From Rhina ancylostomus (taxonomy: Eukaryota), in contig JARFYF010000074.1 in the NCBI GenBank assembly GCA_030265395.1, positions 86,768,288 through 86,832,287 of the forward strand: a DNA stretch of 64,000 nt, written 5' to 3'. This document shows, in pieces, positions 8,158-55,310 of this stretch (positions are counted from its first letter, which is position 1; every line of letters begins with the position of its first letter). The translations under genes and the position numbers were made by a program. The notes beneath the pieces were generated by a model. The model worked only from the letters and a program-made list of their open reading frames with translations, made no database searches and had not been told where the DNA came from.

Positions 8158-9222
8158 TGATGGGAATGTTCTGAGAATGAGAAGGAGGTGCCAGAGGGCA
8201 CAATTCTGTATTCAGGCACTGTTCCTGCCTCCCAATATCCTAATTCCCCTTTCACAGTCACTGAGGGCAGCTGCTCCAGCTCTGCTTTACATTGTAAGGT
8301 CACAGTCCATTTCTGCCAGCGGCAATACTCATATCAAAGGTATCCGGAAACCTTCATAAAGTCAAACATTGCAGCAGAACCTGGCAGCAGCCTTTACAGT
8401 GCTCAGGCCAGGCCATAGGGAGGGTACAGGCTGAGTGTTGCATAGGATTCCTCGTGCATCCCTTGCAGCATTTGCCCCACCCACCAGTCCTGATAAAACA
8501 CAGGCTGGTTTGAGACAGGACACAACAGGCCGCAATTAAATGTTAAAGTGAAGCTCAGAGGAGATTGCTGTCTGAACTCCACTCTCCCCAACCATGTCCT
8601 GAGTCAAAGCAACTCCTCAATTTTTGTTTTCTCTGGGCACTCCTGAGTAAACGATGCCGCTTAGTGTGCAGATAGAGAGATGCATGGCCTCAGCAGAATC
8701 ATTTGTGGAGATCCTGGGAACTCTACTCTGGTGGGATTAAAGTCTATTAAACAATCTTTATGCCACAGATTAAATCACTGATTAATAGAGCGTGTGGCCA
8801 ACCAAAATAAACAGGAATTCAGCACTGAATCTCTGACATCGCAGTTGCGTCTGGTAAAAAATGCATGAGATTTATACTGTTAATTAGATTCTGCTACATT
8901 GTACATGTTGCAAGCTGACTTTTGTGGTGCTTTTGAGTTAAGTTTGACAAAATCTCAGTGTACTTCTCATCAGTTTTCACTTATCATATTGTTCAATAAT
9001 TTATTTCTCCTACATATTCTGAATTGTGTTATTGTTTCATATAATTGGCGTGTTAATTTGGCCCTTTGAATTAACAAAGTCTTAATCATCTTTGTTGTGT
9101 TCCTAATGGTTTCTCCACTTCCTTCAACATTAACTGTATATTCCTTTTCCCACCAGCTTCCTCCTTACAGTCAGGCTGTAATCGTAACCAAGGATGAAGT
9201 AGTGATGGGTGTATGAAGTACA

Positions 9223-9788
9223 CCATAAGACCAAAAGATATAGGAGCAGAATTAGGCCATTCAGCCCATCGAGTCTGCTCCGTCATTCATTCATGGCTGA
9301 TTTTTTTCCAACCCCATTGTCCTGCCTTCTCCCCGTAACCCTTAGCCCCCTTACTAATCAGGAACTATTAATTTCTGCCTTAAATACACCCAGTGACTTG
9401 GCCTCCACAGCCCTCTTGTGACAATGAATTCCACAGGTTCACCTTCCTCTGGCTGAAGAAATTCCTCCTCATCTTAGTTTTAAAGAGACATTCCTTTATT
9501 CTGAGGCTGTGCCCTCAGATCCTAGACTCTCCTACTAATGGAAACATCCTTTCAACGTCCACTCTTTCTAGGATTTTCAGTGTCTGGTAGGTTTCAATCA
9601 GATTCCGCGNNNNNNNNNNNNNNNNNNNNNNNNNNNNNNNNNNNNNNNNNNNNNNNNNNNNNNNNNNNNNNNNNNNNNNNNNNNNNNNNNNNNNNNNNNN
9701 NNNNNNNNNCCGCGCCCCCCCCCCCCCCATCCTTCTGAAGTCCAAGTACAGGCCCAAAGACATGAAACACTCTTCGTATATTAAGCAA
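9223..9788 (-). mobile_element. CR1 (HER1-like) LINE 3' end
   Basis: The reverse strand gives ..NLIETYQTLKILERVDVERMFPLVGESR.. plus the typical tail gggctgaatggcctaattctgctcctatatct. Contains an N gap. Confidence 0.85.
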
Positions 9789-9924
9789 GGATCTCCTGAG
9801 CTATTTCTATGCTTCCTTCCCGCAGAACATTGAGTGGGTGGGTATCTGCATGCGTGCTGGCCACTCTGCCTGAAAATATGGTGCCCTCACCATTACCAGG
9901 AAATTGTGGCACCATGTATTACAG

Positions 9925-10215
9925 CTCCAGGGATCTGTGTGGAGTTTACACGTCATCTCTGTGACCTCGTGAGCATCCTCCAAGTGCTCCAGTTTCCTCC
10001 TAGATCCCAAAGACTTGCTGGTAGGTTAGTTGGCACCTATAAATTATTGCTTAGGTCAATGGCAGAAAGAAATAGAGGAGAGTTGATGGGTGTGTGAGAG
10101 AGAATATGCTGCAGGGATACAGGGAAATAGGAAGAAGGGGAATGGAACTAATAGGAGTAATCCCCTGGGAGCCAGTATGGGTGAAAAGGCCTCCTACTGT
10201 GTCATTAAAAGTGTA
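9925..10215 (+). mobile_element. Degenerate V-SINE with CR1-type tail
   Basis: V domain tctgtgtggagtttacacgtc...gtgctccagtttcctcc..atcccaaagac and tail gggtgaaaaggcctcctactgtgtc. Confidence 0.65.
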
Positions 10216-10683
10216 AGGTGCCCGATTTTTCATCCTTTTTATCTTAGAATCTCTAAAGATACCACCTGTGCAGGATAAACCCATACCCCAGTTCAACCCT
10301 GCACAGGGATGCCCCTCTGCAATGGGGGAGGGAAAGGAGGTCTGTCAACATGTCTGACACCATCAACTCTATCCAAAGACTGGCACTGCTGTGGTTATAC
10401 CAGCTGGGTAAGAAACATGCATTTAACGTGGAGAGACACTTGGCTTGAGCAGTTTGCAATTAGACCAAAGGGTTGGGAAGCTTGTGTGCCAGCTGCCTAG
10501 AGGGAGAGGTTACACATTTTTACTGCACTTCACTGCCCAATTTTCCCAGAAAAACAGGTTCCAGATGTTCATCTCACTGAAAACTGGAATGGATACTGAA
10601 GGATGAATTTAACCAATCAAAACCAATAGGAATGTTTTGGGAAAGGGACTGAGGTGCCTGAGGGTTGTGCAGTACAGCATTCA

Positions 10684-10942
10684 AAACCCGAGAATCAAAA
10701 AAAAACTGGACGTCTGAAATAAAAACAGAAATTGCTGAAAACTCTCAGCAGGTCAGGCAGCAGAGAAACAATTAACGTTTCAGGGCGAAGGTCCTTCATC
10801 AGAACTGAGGAAGAAAGAAAGTCTTGGGCACAAGACTTCCTCTTTCTCAGTTCTGATGATAGGTCTTCAACCTGAAATGTTAACTTTTTCTCCTTCCACA
10901 GATGCTGCCAGACCTGCTGAGCGTTTCTGTCATTTTCTGTTT
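10684..10942. mobile_element. Palindromic Penelope-derived element with two inverted minimal hammerhead motifs, 7-bp TSD
   Basis: Imperfect inverted repeat centred on aagtcttg-ggca-caagactt. CTGATGA...GAAA cores lie on the + strand (10848-10884) and the - strand (10768-10807). TSD GCATTCA at 10677-10683 and 10943-10949. Confidence 0.8.
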
Positions 10943-11462
10943 GCATTCAGCAGCTATTCCTGTCTCCCAGCATTGTAGCCCCTCTTTAACAGTCAGTGAG
11001 GGTTCTGCCTTACATGGGTCAGGACAACAATGGAGGAGCACATATCAAAAAGTTGCTTCCCATGTGGATGTATTTGGAAATGCTTGGTGCTTTGTCCGGC
11101 CTGTCTGACAAGTTGCAAGGGATGGGAAGGATCATAAGGTCCACCTCCAACCTCTCATTTTGACTTCTTGTGGAGATACAAGGCCATTATTTTCAGTACA
11201 GAAGTGGTGAGCACCTCACTGGTGGGCAACTTGAACATTCCCATGGGGCAGCACCTGATGGATCAGGTTCCTGCTTCACTAAGTCTCAGAGAGACATCCA
11301 AAGTCTTTGTGTTTCATGGACTCTCGCTGTTCCATTCAGCAGTTCTTGTTGTCACCAGCAGGTGATTATAAAGGATGCCAGCTGAAACCACAGTGTTGTT
11401 GCTGAGAAGCAGAGTACTCTCATGTATTAACTGATGATCAGAATTGGGTTGGGTTGGGTTGG

Positions 11463-11698
11463 GTCAATACGGTAGTGCAGCAGTTAGTGTAACGCTATTA
11501 CAGCACCAGCGATCATGGTTCAATTCCCGCTGCTGTCTGTAAGGAATTTGTACGTTCTCCCCGTGACTGCGTGGGTTTCCTCCAGGTACTCCTGTTTCCT
11601 CCCACATTCCAAAGACGTATGGGTTAGTAGGTGTAATTGGGTGGTGCGGGCTCATTGGGCTGAAAGTTATCGTGCTGGATAAATAAAGTTTTAAAGTA
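11463..11698 (+). mobile_element. tRNA-derived V-SINE (short-tail variant)
   Basis: A box cggtagtgcagcagttag, B box ggttcaattcc, a complete V domain, and an end gggctgaaagttatcgtgctggataaataaag. Confidence 0.85.
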
Positions 11699-14034
11699 AA
11701 GGGTCCAAAGGCTTTGACAGCAGCTGAGTGATCTGAGTCACAGCAGATACACAGTCTATTGTCCGTCCGGTCCAGGGAGAAATCTGTTGTCATCATGGAG
11801 CNNNNNNNNNNNNNNNNNNNNNNNNNNNNNNNNNNNNNNNNNNNNNNNNNNNNNNNNNNNNNNNNNNNNNNNNNNNNNNNNNNNNNNNNNNNNNNNNNNN
11901 NAAAGTTTTGGCCTCTTTCAGGATATTAGAACCTCTCCTCCCACTGCCTCTCACTGTGACTTTGTGATAATGCTCTATGTGGCAACATTGATTTCCCAAA
12001 GTCCAGCATTATCTGATACCTCATTGTTTAAAAAATTATTTTTGAATCAATTTTGGACCCAGATAGCTGGACAAATAGAGGAAACACAACCACTGAGTCT
12101 GTTGTAGTTAAAGAAGTCATGAAATTAAAGACTTCCAGGACTAACCTGTACTAGGATTGGCCATTGTATGGATGGTAGTCCCATTTTAGATGTGGAGGTT
12201 ATGATATTAAGGACCCAGTGTGCCTCCCTTTAGAAAGTATCACCAGACACCTGGAGTGGTGCAGACATCAGAATCCAATGATATTCTCCACCAGCCTCCT
12301 GGCAGCCCTGAGGCACTCGGCTGCACTCAGTAGAGCTTGATGACACACATGGCATTTGATATGTGTTAGCTGAATTTCACAAATTGCATGATTCTTGCAT
12401 AAGAGCAGTGATTACAAGATGCACACACAGATACAGTGATTTTCAAGAGCACAGTTAAATGCTCGGCGTATCAGACATTAGCCAAGTGGCATCATCTGGG
12501 CTGGAGTGCAGTATTTGAGCATTGGATTGCCAGCTGATACTGGGGCATGTTTTACTGCCTTAGAAGCAGCATCAGCTGATCAGGAAAGGATGTTTTACTT
12601 TTTACACCAGGTTATCCATCATCTAACTCAGAAGCTGGACAAAATAATGAGATTACAACTTAAAAAACTAAAGTAATTACTTGTAAATAATTTTGAAATA
12701 TATGAAAAGGTTTGCATTTTCCAGGACCCTCTGCTTCTCTAACCAGCTTGCTGTTCTATGTGGACCACAAACTCTGGGACACAGGCTCTGGGTCTGACTT
12801 AGCCAGATCCTGGTTGAATTTAAGGCCATTTGAGAAAGTGTTCGGTAAGGGAGGAGGTGTAATATTGTGTGTGCCATAAGGTTGGAGGGATTTTAGCCCC
12901 AACATACCTCCCCTATTCTGTTGTTAACGATATGTTTAGCAGAGATCCCCATGCTCATGAGACTGTAAAGATTTTTTGAAAATTCATATAATCCCTTGAA
13001 CTCAACGGAATTTTGTTTTTTGTGAATATTTCTTTAAACATATGAAAGGCTATAGTGCTATCACAGATTACCCTTGGCATTGATTGATACAGTGAGTCAG
13101 AATACTGTCCTTTCAGACACAGGATCTGTGTTTGAATCCAAGAGAAATAAATGAATTAAACACAGTTCAGGAAATATTTACAAAGGAGTCAGTCGTTAAG
13201 TCCATAACTCTATTCATATCTCATTTGTAGTTGACATTTTGTAAAAAAAAAGCATTCAGTCTCTAAAATTCACCTTTATACAAAAGTATAATTAAAAGGC
13301 ATTTCTGAAAGGATTTTGAAAACCTTCTAAAAGTGGGCTTTCGGCCTTGCTTTTTCTACCACTGGAAAATACAGGTAGAGTTGAGAAATAGAATGACGCA
13401 AATCTGTGGTTTCCTCAGACATCACACCCTGAATTGTGCCTCAATTGCAGCTGCAATATTTCTTCCACAACCTGTTTTCTGGTAAATTGCATAAAATAAA
13501 ATCTAATTCTGCAGCAGGCAATTCCAAGTTACTTTTTACCATGATCGGCTGATTTTTAACCTATCTTGGACTTAAAAATCCAATGCAAGAAAATCCCTAA
13601 AGATTTGAGGAGCAAAGTTAAAACTACAGTCACTTTCCTCTCAATCTGAGCTTTTCCCCTGCTCCTTCCAATCTTCACATATTTGAGGCTACATTCTTGC
13701 AGCTTTTCAATGGGCATATATGCTGGTTTGGTTGTATGGTTGTTGTAATGCTGCTGCGTCTGTAAGTACCATGTCACATAGTGTGCTTTGAACTGTTAGC
13801 TGTTTTTAGAAGCTTCCAGTGGTAATAACTGTGGAGCCACTTATAATAAGCGGTTGTGCCTATTTTGCAGCTCTGGAAGTCAGTATGAATTCCATCTCAC
13901 TGTCAATCAGAGAACACAGATCCTACATTAGGTAGCACTGCCCCCACCCAGTACAGTTTATTCTGTCTACATGACTCACCTACACTCCCTAGATCCCACT
14001 CAGTTTATTCCTCCTCACAGCTCCTTTCTGCTAC

Positions 14035-24879: not shown

Positions 24880-27870
24880 GCAGCAACAGGAAGCTCAGGG
24901 GAGGTCTCCATTGTTTCAGAAAACATGGCTGCTGGGGAGGTCTGCAGGTAAAACTGAAGCGCAGAGCCAAAAGGCCCCCCTCCCTACCTCCTTCCTGGCT
25001 CATGTACAGTCTCTAGAGAACGAAATTGAAGACCTCAGAGCAAGACTGCAGTACCAGAGGGACATCAGGGACTGTTGTGTACTTTGCTTCACAGAGACAT
25101 GGATCAATCCCGGTACTCCAGACACAGTGCTCCAGCCTGAGGGCTTCACTATCCACCGCATGGACCAGATAGCAGCATCAGGTAAAGATGTGGTGGATTT
25201 TGCTTAATAATTAATTCCTTATGGTGCACAGACATGGCGGTTCTGTCTCAGTCCTGCTCCCCTGACCTGGAACATCTGGCGATCAAGTGTCGTCCATTCT
25301 ATCTGCCGAGTGAGTTTTCCACCATCATCCTGGTAGCAGTGTCCATTCCACCTCTGGCATATGTCAAGCTGGCACTGGAGGAGCTGAGCACCATGATCAG
25401 CAGTCATGAGGCAGTGCACCCCAATGCCTTCCCTTCGCTAGGTTGAAGACTCTGACAAACTACCACCAACATGTCACCTGCAGAACCAGTGGAGCCTACA
25501 CACTCGATCACAGTTACACCACCATCAAGAACACACCGTGCCATCCTGCGCCCTCACTTTGGCAAGTCCGATCACCTGGCTGAACTTCTACTCCTGGCAT
25601 ATAGGCAGAGACTGAGGACCACTGCACCCATGGTGAGAACCACGAAGGTATGGTCAAGGGAGGTGGAGGAGCATTTACAGGACTGCTTTGAATCGGGGAA
25701 CTGGACCATATTCAGGGATTTATCTTCAGATCTGAATGAATATGTCGCGGTCTTCACTGACTTCATCAAGACCTGGTGGATGAGTGTGTGCCTTCAAGAA
25801 CATACCAAGTTTCCCCGAATCAGCAGCCCTGGATGAACCAGGAGATTTGCAGTCTGCTAAGGGCTAGATCTGTGGCGTCCAAGACCAGTGATCTAGAACC
25901 CTACAAGAAGTCCAGGTACAACCTACAGAAGGCCATCGTGAGTGCAAAAAGGCAATTCCGTGTGAAGTTAGAAACACAATCGGATGCACGACAGCTGTGG
26001 CAGGGTCTGCATGCCGGTACTTCCAATAAGGCGAAACCTAACAACATAAATGGCAGTGATGCTTCACTCCCTGATGTGCTCAATACCTTTTATGCATGGT
26101 CTGAAAGGGAGAATAACACAAAACCTGTGCAAATCCCTACAGCATCCAACAACCCTGAGATCTCTGCCTTGGAGGCTGACGTCAGAACATCCTTCAAGAG
26201 GGTGAATGCTCGCAAGGTGTCAGGCCCTAATGGTGTACCTGGATGGGTACTGAACATCAGTGCTGACCAAATGGCTGGAATGTTCAAGGACATCTTCAAC
26301 CTCTCACTACTGCAGTCAGAGGTCCCAACCTGCTTCAAAAGGGCAGCAATCATACTGGTACCAAGAAGAGCAGGGTGAGCTGTCTCAACAACCATCGCCT
26401 GGTAGCACTCACATCTACTGTGATGAAGTGCTTTGAGAGTTTGGTCATGGCTAGAATTAACTCCTGCTTGAGCTAAGACCTGGACCCACTGGAGTTTGCC
26501 TACCACCACAACAGGTCGACAGCGGACGCGATCTCACTGGCTCTCCACTCGGCTTGGAGCACCAAAACAAGTGACAGGCTGCTGTTTATTGTTTACAGCT
26601 CGGTGTCCAACACAGTACAAATCACCAAGCTTCAGAACCTGGGCCTCTGTACCTCCCTCTGCAACTGGATCCTTGACTTCCTTATCAGGAGAACACAGTC
26701 AGTGCGGATTGGTAACAACATCTCCTCCTCGCTGACAATCAACACAGATGCACTTGAAGGATACGTGCTTAGCCCACTGTTCTGCTCTCTCTACACTCAC
26801 GACTGTGTGGTGAGGCACAGTTCAAACACCATCTATAAATTCGCTGATGACACCGTTGTTGNNNNNNNNNNNNNNNNNNNNNNNNNNNNNNNNNNNNNNN
26901 NNNNNNNNNNNNNNNNNNNNNNNNNNNNNNNNNNNNNNNNNNNNNNNNNNNNNNNNNNNNNAACACAGGCACACCTCAAGGATGCGTGCTTAGCCCACTG
27001 CTCTACTCTCTCTACACTCATGACTGTGTGGCTAGGCACAGCTCAAACACTATCTATAAATTCACTGATGATGCCACTGTTGTTGATAGAACCTCAGATG
27101 ACGATGAGGAGGCGTACAAGAGTGAGATAGATCAGCTGGTTGAGTGGTGTTGCAACAACAACCTTGCACTTAACATCAACAGGAATTGATTGTGGACTTC
27201 AGGAAGGGGAAGTTGGGAGAACACACATCAATCCTCATTGAGGGGTCAGTGGTGGAAAGAGTCAACAGCTTCAATTTCCTGGGTGTCAACATCTTGGAGG
27301 ATCTATCTTGAGCCCAAAACATTGATGCAATCACAAAGAAGGCATGCCAATGGCTCTACTTCATTAGGAGTGTGATGAGATTTAATATGACACCAAAGAC
27401 AAAGCGAATTTCTACAGATGTACAATGGAGAACATTCTGAATGGTTGCATCACAGCCTGGTACGGAAGCTGCAATGCACAGAATCAAGAGGCTGCAGAGG
27501 GTTGTAGACTCAGCCAACTCCATCACGGGCACAACCCTCCCCGCCACAGAGGACATCTTCAAGAAGCTGTGCCTCAAGAAGGCAGTATCCATCATTAAAG
27601 ACCTTCACCAGCCAGGACATGCCCTCTTCTTGTTACTACCATCAGGGAGGAGGTACAGAAGGCTCACATTCAACATTTTAGGAACACCTTCTTCCCCTCT
27701 ACTATCAGATTTCTGAACGGTACATGAACCCATGAATACTACCTTGCTATTCCTCTTTTGCACTATTTATTTGTTTTTGTAAGATAGTAATTTTTATGTC
27801 TTGCACTGTACTGCTGCCGCAAAGCAACAAATTTCTTGACGTATGTGAGTGACAATAAATCTGATTCTGA
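24880..27870 (+). mobile_element. Near-full-length, inactivated Rex1/Babar LINE (APE endonuclease + RT)
   Basis: Frameshifted pieces read CCVLCFTETW, CSPDLEHLAIKCRPFYLPSEFS, FGKSDH, PWMNQEI, LCNWILDFL, LSPL..SLYTHDCV..HSSNTIYKFADDT and RLQRVV. The 3' tail is gtgacaataaatctgattctga. Multiple stops are present. Confidence 0.92.
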
Positions 27871-41303: not shown

Positions 41304-41500
41304 GAGAAATAAAGGACTGCAGATACTGGAATCTAGATGAAAAACACAATGATGCTGGAGGAACTCAGCAAGCCAGGCAGCATCCATGTAGAAAAGCAAG
41401 CGAGTCCCGATGAAGGGTCCTGACCCGAAACATTGACTACCTGCTTTTCTTCATGGATGCTGCCTGGCCTGATGAGTTTCTCCAGCATCATTGTATTTTA
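41304..41500. mobile_element. Palindromic Penelope-derived element with one central hammerhead-like motif
   Basis: The arms aatgatgctggaggaactcagcaagccaggcagcatccatg / catggatgctgcctggcctgatgagtttctccagcatcatt flank the motif agtc-ccgatga-agggtcctgaccc-gaaa-catt-gact at 41403-41438. Imperfect TSD caagatgtgcca / caagatacgcca. Confidence 0.8.
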
Positions 41501-42419
41501 CAAGATACGCCATCATGGCTGTAGTTATTAAAATGGCATTTCTCAACTGGAGCCAATTGGGGACGGGTGCAGCAGTTTGGGTTGAGCCGTCATGAGGATT
41601 CCTGAGATGGATTTTGGAGTCGGCATCCTGCTTCTCCCATGCTAGACTTTATATTGTGGCAGTCCCATAGATACCCAAGAAGAGGATTGGCGTGCTTAAA
41701 TCATTGCAGGATGTCATACGTCACTGTTGTACAAAAATTGGCTGTCCTGTTTTGTACCTTACAAAAGTGACTGCACTTCAAACAACCTCAATCACCTCTT
41801 AAAAATGTAAAAGGTGATTTTATTACATTTGTTATTATGTCTTTTGAAATGTCTTGCAGTCATCCTTTGCTTTGTTCAGCCCTCACAGGGACATCTGAAA
41901 ATTCATTATAGTTGGAGACAGCATGATGAAATTGGCTCTGTACTTGCTTGAACTGTGCATGCTGTAGATCAATTGTTTAAATATAGCAACAGAGGGAGGG
42001 ATGTTCTAAACTGCGGGCAGTACTGAAATAGTAAGCATAGTAAATAATTCTGAGGCCAAAAAAGTGGGAGATGGAGTTTAACATCAGTAAATGCGAGATA
42101 TGGGTGAGCAGGAGATATTGTGGCTCAGTTTCATTAATATTAACATGTCACATGAAATCAAATTAATAGAAAGGGCAGGACATATTCTGTAGAATGTTGC
42201 TGATATAAATAAATATTTGTAGACCAGTTGGAGGTGTTTATATTAGAACAGCAAGATTACAAACTATTTGGTGGAGGAGTTTAACATTAAGCTTTTTGAT
42301 GGAGGAGTTTAAAATTATGACAAAATCGAAATGAATAGGAAGCAGAATAGTTCCAATGATAAAGATATCTAGAAAAAAAACAGCAGTTATAATTAAAACT
42401 TTAAGGCTTTAAATAAAAA

Positions 42420-46227: not shown

Positions 46228-46410
46228 GAGACACAAGGAATTCTGCAGATGCTGGAATCTTGAACAATACACACAAAATGCTAGGGAATTCATCGGGGTC
46301 AGGTAGCATCAGTCCTAATGAAGGGTCTCGACCTGAAATGTCGACTGTTTATTTCCCTCCATAGGTGCTGCCTGACCTGCTGAGTTCCTCCAGCATTTTG
46401 TGTGTATTGC
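46228..46410. mobile_element. Palindromic Penelope-derived element with central hammerhead-like motif
   Basis: The arms caatacacacaaaatgct / agcattttgtgtgtattg flank cagtc-ctaatga-agggtctcgacct-gaaa-tgtc-gactg (46310-46347), with a perfect stem I cagtc/gactg. Confidence 0.8.
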
Positions 46411-46449
46411 AAACAAAAGTGTGATTTGGTATCAATTNNNNNNNNNNTA

Positions 46450-48015: not shown

Positions 48016-48149
48016 CAAGCCCTGCACCCTCACTCAAACAGTGGAGGCTCCTTAAGTCACTGGGTAAACATGAAGCTGAGGACGGGTGAGGCAGTTACTA
48101 CCTACAGAGAGATCACTGAGCAGCAGCAGGGTAATTTGGGGCTGAGGGG

Positions 48150-48800
48150 TGTTGGGCTGGGGGGGGGGAGGGAATCGCAGACCGGCGAGGGGTTAGCAAC
48201 ATGAGGGGGTCCGGCTTCCGGCCGCTCGCCTCGCTGCTGCTGGTCTGGCTGCTGTGTGACTGCGGGACGTTGTCGGCGGCGGGGAGAAGGAGGCAGCTGA
48301 GACCCGCCGCCGGAGCTCAGGGACCGGGCAGGATTCCCCAGCCGGGAGGTCCCGCCACCGCACGCAGGACGACGGTGCAGAGAGACGACAGCAGGTCGCT
48401 GACAGGACGGAGCAGGCACCCCAGCTACCCCGTCAGGGGGTCCCGTTCGGGAATGGTCCGGGACACCAGCAGAGCGGCGCGGAGCCGGGTGGCCCGCGTC
48501 CCAGCTTCGGGCACCCCCAGCCTGCTGTCCGGGATGGTGGGCAGGCAACGGCTGTGGGTCATCTCGGCTCCCCACCCCTCGGACGGTTACTACAGGCTCA
48601 TGCTCAGCCTCCTCAAGGACGACGTCTACTGCGAGCTAGCGGAGAGGCACATCACCCAACTGGTACTGTTCCACCAGGAGGGAGAGGTGGCCGGAAAAGT
48701 CAGGAAGATCAGCAGCGAGGGGAAAATCCTGGAGGAACCTCTAGACACCAAGACCGTCCTCAAGCTGCTGGACTTCCTGAAACTGGAGAAGGGAAAATTT
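48150..48800. promoter_or_regulatory. CpG-island-like segment over the 5' end of CCDC80 coding exon 1
   Basis: Dense CG dinucleotides around the start codon, fading towards the Lys-rich 3' part of the exon. Confidence 0.6.
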
Positions 48801-49958
48801 AGCATGGTCTTACTGAAGAAGAACCTGCAGTTGGAAGAAACGTACCCTTACCCAGTGAGACTGGAGGCGATGTACGAAGTCATTGACCAGGGTCCCATTC
48901 GGAAGATCGAGAGGCTGAGGCAGAAAGGCTTTGTGCAGAAGTGTAAGGAAGCCGGCGTAGAAGGGCAGGTGGTTGGAGCCGACGAAGGAGAGAAGAAGAA
49001 AGTGGAGCAGCCCAGGCCAACGCCAAAGAACGAGAATACAGAGGTGACCCTTCCAAAGGAGACTAAAGAAAAAGCTCCAGAGAAAGAGAAAAAGAAAAAG
49101 CCTACGGTGAGGAGGCCCATCAGGATATCACTGAACACACATGGAGGTTCTAAAATCGTTAGGACAACTGCTGTGCCCAGAACAATCCCAACCAGATCTC
49201 CTACAGCCATCAGCACCACCACAACCACTGCCACTCCCACCACCATCATTGTTCCCTCTCCAACAGGCGGTGAGAGACAGTCGTTCACAAGGTCTCATGT
49301 AATGTTTTCTCCATTGCCGCCAAGGTCTCACAGACCTCCACTGGTTGATGAAACTCCTTCAAGGTCTTCAACTGAGGCTAACTCACACAGAGATGGGCAT
49401 CGGGCAGCGAGCATCCCTAGTGGCAGCAAATTCCTGCAGGAGCCTACCCCAGGAACAACAACTACTAGGCCAGGTTATACAAAAGTACAGACTAGTAGAC
49501 GGAAGTACAGTCAGACAGACAAAAAAGAGGGGAATTATCGCCAGAAGGGCCTGCCAGTGGCACCTGGTCAACGCAAGCCTCCCAAAGTCAAGTCACCAAA
49601 ATCAAAAACTACAAATAATAAAATCCTAACAAATGAATATGAGGATAAATATCAGCCTGAGAAGGTCTCATCCCCAAACACCAGCCAAGTGGTCGAAGTG
49701 GAACATGGACCGCAGAAAAAGCCTAGCAAGCCAGTCAAGACTGAAAAGAAGAAGAAGAAGCCTGTGAAGAATAAAAAAACAGGGAAGAAAGTCAAACCCT
49801 TACCGAAACCTAAACCTACAAAGGAAATTAGTCACAATAATAAAAAACCCAAGAAGGCAATCAAGAAAGGAGTTTTTAAACAACCTAAGAAGATTCCAGG
49901 AGCAACAAAGTCACTGGCTTCTATTCTCAGCTACTATGAAAATAGGCGACGACTAGTA
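48201..49958 (+). CDS. CCDC80: CCDC80 coding exon 1: signal peptide, first DUF4174 (DUDES/P-DUDES thioredoxin-like) repeat, Thr-rich and Lys-rich linker
   Basis: ATG in good context (gcaacATG) followed by a hydrophobic signal peptide (LASLLLVWLLCDC). The translation RLWVISAPHPSDGYYRLMLSLLKDDVYCELAERHI...LKLEKGKFSMVLLKK...YPYPVRLEAMYEVIDQGPIRKIE...QKGFVQKCK...GVEGQVV closely matches vertebrate CCDC80 as I recall it. The exon ends ENRRRLV at a phase-0 donor GTAAGT (49959-49964). Confidence 0.96.
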
Positions 49959-50640
49959 GTAAGTGTTCCAACTGTTAAAGTGATGGTATCTTTGTTAATG
50001 GCAAGGAAGAGTAGCCGCAGTGAGATTACATGAACATGGCAGGATAGTGTTTTCCAAAGTGGGGACATACTTCACCTCATGATCTCAAAGCCAAAAACAA
50101 AGAAAAAACACTTAAAACCATGGCCCCAGGATGTTTTTGAAAGGTTGCATGTACTGATAGCACTAATGAACAATGAATATTTGATAATAAGAAACAATAG
50201 AAATCCCATCAAATAATGCTCATTGGTTTCTGATCGCTGAACATAACCATTATTCAATTGAAGGAAAAAGCAAATCAAGGGTAATATTTCTTTAAAGCAA
50301 GTTGCTATTTTTATAGAAAAGTGATACACTAAAATTTCGACAGACCTTTTTTCTGAGTTACCAGGAACCATAGGAAGAGAAACTGCTGGTTAGTTCTATA
50401 TTGTCTCCTACAGGTGCTGGCCCTGTGTTTCCCAACCCAATTCTGAGTGTCCCAAGGGCTCAGTTAACTAAAACAAGATCAGTATTTTAGATTATGTTCG
50501 GAACAATAAAAACCACCATAGACCTATTAGCTTTTAACAGTTAATGAATAGTAATCTGGTTGATAAACTTACAGTCCATTATTATTTTTTTTGTTGCTTC
50601 GATAATTCCTTGTCAGAATTTTTAAAAATATAACTGGCTG

Positions 50641-54899: not shown

Positions 54900-55310
54900 T
54901 GGCTGAGAAGGCCAAGACCACGTGTAGACTAGGTGACCATTTTGCGAATGGCCACCTTTTGAGCTTCCAGTTCCATGTTGTTTCAAGTCCCCTCCCACAT
55001 CACCCTGTCAGCCCTCAGCCTCCTCCATTGATAAGCCCATGTAAACAGGAGGACAATACCTCGTATTCCACTTGGGTAGCCTACAGCCCAATGGCATGAA
55101 TATTGAATTTTCCACTTTCAGGTAACCCACTCCCCCCGTGTTCCTTTCCCACTCCCACCAGCCCACCCAGCTTCTCTCTTCCTTTGTTCACCTTTTCCAT
55201 CCCCTCCCTCCCCTCATTACCTGAACTCATCACCCTCTCCCATCTGATTCCATCAGCCCTCCCTTATTTGCTTCCATCTGCCCATCATTTGCCTCTTCTC
55301 TCAGCTGTCA
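54900..55310 (+). mobile_element. Penelope GIY-YIG endonuclease C-terminus and 3'UTR fragment
   Basis: KTTCRLGDHFA...YLVFHLGSLQPNGMNIEFSTFR* followed by a C-rich UTR, matching the PLE terminal motif LIFRLG.LQP.GMN.EF. Confidence 0.75.

Follow-up and report, generated by a model that had tools for sequence, protein, structure and literature searches.

Two truncated Penelope-like element ends, placed head to head and carrying minimal hammerhead motifs on opposite strands, form an imperfect hairpin in Rhina ancylostomus that is probably one old insertion

Our analysis of a 64,000-nucleotide (nt) stretch of the Rhina ancylostomus genome (contig JARFYF010000074.1), here referred to as the window, indicated that the imperfect hairpin at positions 10684 to 10942 very probably consists of two 5′-truncated pLTR ends of a Penelope-like element (PLE) joined head to head, which likely represent one old insertion and likely have no function today. 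This architecture, i.e., inverted pLTRs, a one-sided tail, and minimal hammerheads on opposite strands, is already published, and the window locus taken alone is a decayed insertion scar of little weight.

An inverted-repeat comparison of the window revealed an inner imperfect repeat of 52 nt (10763-10814/10841-10892, 81% complementary) and an outer one of 45 nt (10718-10762/10903-10947, 80% complementary). The segment 10670-10960 folds with −129.4 kcal/mol (z of −12.4), none of 200 shuffled sequences folded as well, and the hairpin forms on both strands (−122 and −121 kcal/mol). The preliminary description of this locus, made from the letters alone, had proposed a hairpin of about 260 bp; the inverted arms and the fold bear this out, but the paired part covers only about 220 nt (10723-10942), and the left end is a tail without a partner. 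The longest perfect base-paired run is 14 bp, and the two arms differ by 22% when aligned with each other. The features of the locus are as follows.

10677-10683, plus strand: left copy of a candidate target-site duplication, GCATTCA (from the sequence; plausible rather than proven)
10684-10722, minus strand: one-sided 3′ tail of the left arm, 39 nt, unpaired in the hairpin (from other copies, the fold, and the arm alignment)
10723-10826, minus strand: left arm, a 5′-truncated pLTR end of a Penelope-like element (from genome copies and the profile)
10769-10807, minus strand: minimal type I hammerhead motif of the left arm (from the sequence, family columns, and fold; activity predicted from the motif)
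10819-10838, no strand: junction private to the locus, in which AAGTCTTG and CAAGACTT form a perfect 8-bp stem around a 4-nt loop
10831-10942, plus strand: right arm, a 5′-truncated pLTR end without a tail (from genome copies and the profile)
10848-10885, plus strand: minimal type I hammerhead motif of the right arm (from the sequence, family columns, and fold; activity predicted from the motif)
10943-10949, plus strand: right copy of the candidate target-site duplication, GCATTCA (from the sequence; overlaps the expected start of the family tail)

A search of the organism's own genome with the arm yielded 4276 candidates; 40 were scored, and nearly all of them matched one arm only, at 82 to 90%. 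A profile was built from 36 of these scored arms, with one subfamily as the training set. Run over 100 stretches of 10 kb at arbitrary places in the genome (889,074 called bases), it identified 212 arms; the reversed control gave none. The density is thus about 1 arm per 4.2 kb, or approximately 470,000 to 530,000 arms genome-wide when extrapolated from these 889,074 bases, and the window contains 15 of them. To the column majority of the sampled arms, the left arm, which carries a 10-nt deletion, is 84% identical and the right arm 82%; the left-arm tail is that of the family, except that it lacks 9 nt internally and shows a few additional bases.

Upstream of longer copies, and in the same orientation, lies a decayed frame with a YIG/CxxC endonuclease-like C terminus, which may be Neptune-like. 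It was found closely upstream of a same-strand arm at the query locus and at 10 of 19 further loci fetched. Pfam matched none of three decayed endonuclease fragments and gave one insignificant match in a set of five; given this null result on the fragments themselves, their identity derives solely from longer homologues. A profile of five fragments retrieved 16 longer proteins, the named ones being from skates, rays, and a shark. When six of these were scanned, four gave GIY-YIG matches, none of which reached the curated cutoff (E values of 3e-4 to 8e-3), and two gave RVT_1 matches, one of them at 5.6e-19. The combination of a reverse transcriptase (RT), a C-terminal GIY-YIG domain, and a terminal-repeat hammerhead characterizes endonuclease-bearing PLEs (PMC8557442). 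As judged from sequence, the arms are the hammerhead-bearing pLTR ends of an abundant endonuclease-bearing (EN+) Penelope-like retroelement; the family profile and the upstream endonuclease C terminus agree here with the preliminary description, which had related the arms to the minimal type I hammerheads and inverted terminal repeats of Penelope-like elements. None of the copies recovered was full length; the four candidates with long open frames were N-rich, their frames running through N.

Several further observations concern coding remnants. The window contains another decayed Penelope-like endonuclease C terminus (55066-55250, plus strand) and frameshifted RVT_1 fragments (26477-27189, plus strand; E values of 4e-6 and 9e-9), which probably belong to a decayed non-LTR element. 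The endonuclease fragment also occurs in annotated skate and shark proteins (P0009, P0017, and P0019; receptor-transporting protein 3-like and neuromedin-U receptor 1), likely as repeat contamination of the gene models, although exonization may also account for it.

The core letters CUGANGA, GAAA, and UH are present in both window arms, and the CTGATGA...GAAA cores lie at 10853-10877 on the plus strand and at 10802-10777 on the minus strand. In the minus-strand motif, the 5′ strand of stem I (10807-10803) is followed by CTGATGA (10802-10796), a damaged stem II, and GAAAC-GT-T (10781-10774); the palindrome AACGTT occupies 10774-10779, and the cut is predicted after 10774. The plus-strand motif comprises CTGATGA (10853-10859), a 4-bp stem II, and GAAA-TG-T-T (10874-10881), with the cut predicted after 10881. 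The latter motif, with its stem III AATGTT, had been recognized correctly beforehand. For the minus strand, an intact catalytic core had been noted. This holds for the core letters, and AACGTT is present as well, but stem II keeps only two of four pairs in the family register. In the plus arm, CpG decay from AACGTT to AATGTT has abolished the stem III palindrome, and the stem III self-duplex is at +0.8 kcal/mol, compared with −3.5 kcal/mol for the minus arm. A stable helix II and a palindromic 15.2-16.2 segment are therefore never found together in one window motif. The covariance-model search suggested in the preliminary description detected no Rfam hammerhead family in 9000-13000 at E values of up to 10 (seven weak unrelated hits), which is not surprising, since minimal hammerheads (min-HHRs) are defined by a separate descriptor (PMC4209133).

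The column frequencies of the family reproduce the min-HHR layout, namely, a helix I of 4 to 5 bp, an extra base after A9, a helix II of 4 to 5 bp, and GAAAC-GT-H, and the hammerhead core is present in the column majority of the sampled pLTR arms. One stem I pair reads T-A in 37 arms, C-G in 26, C-A in 21, and T-G in 10; the T-A/C-G covariation separates two subfamilies (Fisher p of 0.0013), yet few events lie behind it. This compensatory change between subfamilies suggests that selection probably acted on the motif in the source elements. The core columns are conserved no better than the downstream ones (0.85 versus 0.82 and 0.87 versus 0.87). Among 60 single arms spanning the motif, seven kept the core, and one kept the core together with both stems and the palindrome. 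The window arms belong to the GUU subfamily, and GUU is among the cleavable triplets (PMC3138052).

Two features of the family near the hammerhead should also be mentioned. The stretch upstream of it resembles a 3′ splice site (a CTAAC-type branch point, a pyrimidine tract, and CAG) and ends inside the 5′ strand of helix I; it is seen at L005, L008, L011, L012, L018, L025, and L026, about 30 nt upstream of the core. The window arms (10838-10850 and 10805-10820) have kept the tract and the CAG and have lost the branch point. An intron of a D. virilis element ends at helix I (PMC4209133). In one family copy (L007, 1519-1610), a reading frame beginning at an ATG within the core (CTG-ATG-A) runs through the arm, much as the anole ORF starts at stem II.

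In models of read-through RNA of either strand, the core is buried, as had been proposed, with a pairing probability of about 1 and a predicted opening cost of 25 to 26 kcal/mol. Such a transcript would hold a single sense motif, preceded by its antisense. The nearest other arms in the window lie more than 3 kb (plus strand) and more than 8 kb (minus strand) away, neither with an intact core, and tandem same-strand hammerheads, as retrozymes need, were not found at the locus. Single minimal hammerhead motifs were not cleaved, and dimers only to a low degree (PMC4209133); the anole hammerhead depends on the element's own protein (PMC11167929). Both window ribozymes are predicted to be inactive.

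Three related organisms (B, C, and D) have the insert at the orthologous position: contigs of all three run from the flanks into both of its ends, and contigs of B and D cross its center; no contig from the four runs spans the whole stretch. Since the arms differ by 22%, the insertion would predate the splits of these organisms. Divergence inside the insert equals that of the flanks in organism D (8/108 versus 75/1012, 7.4% in both) and is close to it in organism B (4/204 versus 24/1028, 2.0% versus 2.3%), and thus shows no sign of selection in B and D, although these are small samples in which the core positions are hidden and the pile-up of copies masks single differences inside the arms.

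These comparisons bear on the idea that the hairpin is an exapted RNA. The preliminary description had raised a self-masked ribozyme or an siRNA/ADAR substrate; as an exapted element, the hairpin would be a ribozyme switch, or such a substrate under selection, with an effect on a gene in the vicinity. The stability of the hairpin on both strands, its fully paired and intact cores, and its retention in three related organisms would all suit such a role, and a coding exon lies 37 kb away: the window contains a 632-codon frame (48135-50033, plus strand) with a DUF4174 domain (E value of 2.6e-27), which presumably resembles the large first coding exon of CCDC80. However, the insert has diverged as its flanks have, the two orthologous center contigs show five and three gaps inside it, the arm mismatches give six G-U pairs on each strand and thus no strand bias, perfect pairing is short, the stems are damaged, and hammerheads of this kind are inert singly. 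With no second same-strand copy at hand either, a masked-ribozyme or siRNA/ADAR function is unsupported, and we consider exaptation very improbable.

The orientation of neighboring arms supports the reading of the locus as an insertion scar. Among sampled arms no more than 300 nt apart, 29 neighbor pairs were head to head, 13 tandem, and 3 tail to tail (p of 2.6e-6 for 29 versus 3), whereas this bias was gone for neighbors more than 1 kb apart (10, 25, and 20, respectively). As many as 58 of the 212 sampled arms sit in head-to-head pairs, and in 25 of 29 pairs the two arms were of one subfamily, compared with a chance proportion of 0.5. By extrapolation, there are about 64,000 to 72,000 such pairs genome-wide (tens of thousands are probable), including some 11,000 to 12,000 that span both cores. 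The retention of both cores in the window stands against the scar reading to some degree, as they were intact in none of the 29 sampled pairs, five of which span both cores, and only a small minority of single arms keep the core; the 150 to 170 pairs with both cores intact that are expected genome-wide by chance nevertheless account for such a locus. Arms are frequent enough for two of them to have landed side by side independently, but the excess of head-to-head orientation and the subfamily concordance argue against two unrelated insertions. An assembly artifact is contradicted by the 22% difference between the arms and by contigs of the same and of other organisms that cross the center (X1 record 3, X2 record 10, and X4 record 26). 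Together, these two explanations have hardly any probability left.

The preliminary description had also envisaged a family of non-autonomous hairpin retroelements in which the transcribed hairpin is mobilized as a whole, and had named a different inversion point in every copy as evidence for independent products instead. Other palindromes of similar size do exist (L003, L024, and L032), some of them with target duplications. However, an exact pattern for close head-to-head cores yielded six palindromes with six different centers. Arm start positions were scattered among the 29 sampled pairs as well, with the reservation that start points from a profile trained on one subfamily are noisy at 20 to 25% divergence, and the 76-nt center of the window hairpin matched only itself in a genome search that skipped very common words. 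A palindrome mobilized as a unit is therefore largely refuted, and a hairpin family of this kind has very little probability. If head-to-head scars form at each landing, the palindrome itself is not the mobile unit. Two more head-to-head pairs lie in the window (41310-41511 and 46236-46411), each with one tailed arm and with different junctions.

The ends of the insert are consistent with the published insertion units, in which an inverted 5′-truncated copy stands head to head with a one-sided tail of 30 to 40 bp and a target-site duplication (TSD) of 8 to 10 bp (PMC8557442 and PMC3846280); the 39-nt unpaired left end of the window insert matches such a tail. Copy ends of the family cluster at two positions about 25 to 30 nt apart. 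A clustering of 5′ starts near the hammerhead carries little weight, since the profile was trained on one subfamily. Exactly one arm was tailed in 20 of 28 pairs, compared with 13.9 expected (p of 0.017), at a threshold picked after the end distribution had been seen; over five thresholds the count ranged from 18 to 22 of 28, with p from 0.08 to 0.002. One of the 29 pairs lay at a locus edge and was dropped from these counts.

The 7-base duplication at the window locus is plausible. GCATTCA does flank the insert, as had been claimed, but 7.8% of mismatched 40-nt flank pairs also share a 7-mer, so that the match is near chance level, a second 7-mer repeat, CAGCATT (10675-10681 and 10968-10974), flanks the insert too, and the right GCATTCA overlaps the place where the T-rich tail of the family would start. 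No empty site was seen among contigs from four runs. Across the family, direct repeats of at least 8 nt, and up to 15 nt long, flanked 5 of 42 pairs, compared with 0.9 expected; this test used 44 pairs, 15 of them not randomly chosen, two were dropped for edge or N, and for the window locus the flank examined began 3 nt into the right GCATTCA, with the result that a different 7-mer was scored. Pairs with clear flanking direct repeats of 15 and 12 nt (L070, about 2370-2630, and L003, about 1440-1740) are better cases for target-site geometry than the window locus. The subfamily concordance and the enriched flanking repeats indicate that the pairs likely arise as single events.

An insertion scar is thus the highly probable reading of the locus, and several routes could have produced it. 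Priming from both nicks, to which we assign an even chance, would proceed as follows. The element endonuclease would nick both target strands about 7 bases apart, and reverse transcription would be primed from both nicks, at the start site at the tail end in one case and about 30 to 40 bases further in in the other. Both copies would halt just upstream of the hammerhead and be joined or closed at the center. Two-nick priming with one start site per nick would yield head-to-head arms, one tail, and a duplication. In line with such a route, the PLE protein of the anole both cleaves and extends the two strands, prefers ATT, and starts reverse transcription at two adjacent sites that bound the tail (PMC11167929).

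Within the same scar reading, fold-back of one cDNA is somewhat less probable than priming from both nicks, and other routes are unlikely. A cDNA that stopped upstream of the hammerhead would have folded back and primed itself, or else the center was made symmetric later by template switching; these two variants together are possible but doubtful as an account of the locus. The window junction motif has three matches in the genome, two of which are the window's own arms, so that it occurs at one other place, compared with 770 exact matches for the family motif, which has AACTTG at this position. The private symmetric 8-bp center suits fold-back better than two independent cDNAs, and junction palindromes were taken as products of self-priming in PMC3846280. 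The window arms are also 78% alike, compared with a same-subfamily background of 73%. Across pairs, however, the similarity of the arms hardly exceeds that of same-subfamily copies (0.727 versus 0.701, p of 0.06, and 0.722 versus 0.708, p of 0.32), and arm-to-arm identity, once subfamily is controlled for, cannot separate the fold-back and two-primer models. Moreover, most sampled junctions are asymmetric and show no visible stem. If a tail-primed cDNA had simply folded back, the tailed arm should in every case be the longer one. This does not fit the 13 adjacent one-tail pairs, noisy as their start points are: the tailed arm reached further 5′ in seven, the untailed arm in five, and one was a tie.

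Second-strand synthesis and the origin of inverted ends in PLEs are still treated as open in PMC8557442 and PMC11167929, and the value of the family lies in the number of its minimal scars: ends, tails, and junctions can be measured in thousands of them, so that counts can be set against rival integration models. We tentatively propose that the approximately 65,000 head-to-head stubs may be a genome-wide record of paired priming by Penelope-like elements, a proposal that is at present more likely to fail than to hold. A protein dimer would prime from both nicked strands, one at each of the start sites bounding the tail, and the two cDNA ends would be joined or closed into a hairpin. If true, paired priming would account at once for the inverted pLTRs and the one-sided tails, and the family would be a large built-in source of double-stranded RNA (dsRNA) in cartilaginous fishes. 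Head-to-head scars may in any case be a large dsRNA source for editing, if they are transcribed.

We found no publication on head-to-head PLE ends in sharks or on their counts, although the supplements of PMC4209133 and of a 2026 preprint (10.64898/2026.07.22.740005) may list chondrichthyan motifs; the available part of the preprint samples one chondrichthyan and treats only tandem forms. The non-LTR retrozymes described there and in PMC6155905 are, like the window element, non-coding, pLTR-derived, and equipped with a type I hammerhead. However, their hammerheads are tandem on the same strand, whereas those of the window are inverted, with a single one per strand. The family shares with the Anolis PAc element (Poseidon; PMC11167929) the frame-opening hammerhead ATG, seen in one family copy, the two end clusters about 25 to 30 nt apart, and an ATT inside the candidate target duplication; in contrast to PAc, no intact ORF was found in the shark-side family.

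The metazoan PLE min-HHRs (PMC4209133) resemble the window motifs in being of type I, with a helix I of 4 to 5 bp, an unpaired base between 9 and 10.1, a palindromic 15.2-16.2 segment, and no loop 3. Dual min-HHRs on opposite strands are described in the same source, including Schistosoma pairs that lie 100 to 700 bp apart. The window subfamily differs from these by GUU at the cut site and by G-U or A-U, not G-C, at 10.1-11.1, and the window locus by cores that are only 50 bases apart and by damage to both motifs. The closest likeness of form is to the insertion units of EN+ Penelope-like elements (PMC3846280 and PMC8557442), with which the locus shares head-to-head arms, a tail at one end, an outer short direct repeat (here a candidate duplication), and a small junction palindrome. 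Having neither an ORF nor a direct pLTR pair between its arms, the window locus is the smallest form of such a unit, and compared with the published units, the head-to-head form is very frequent in this genome.
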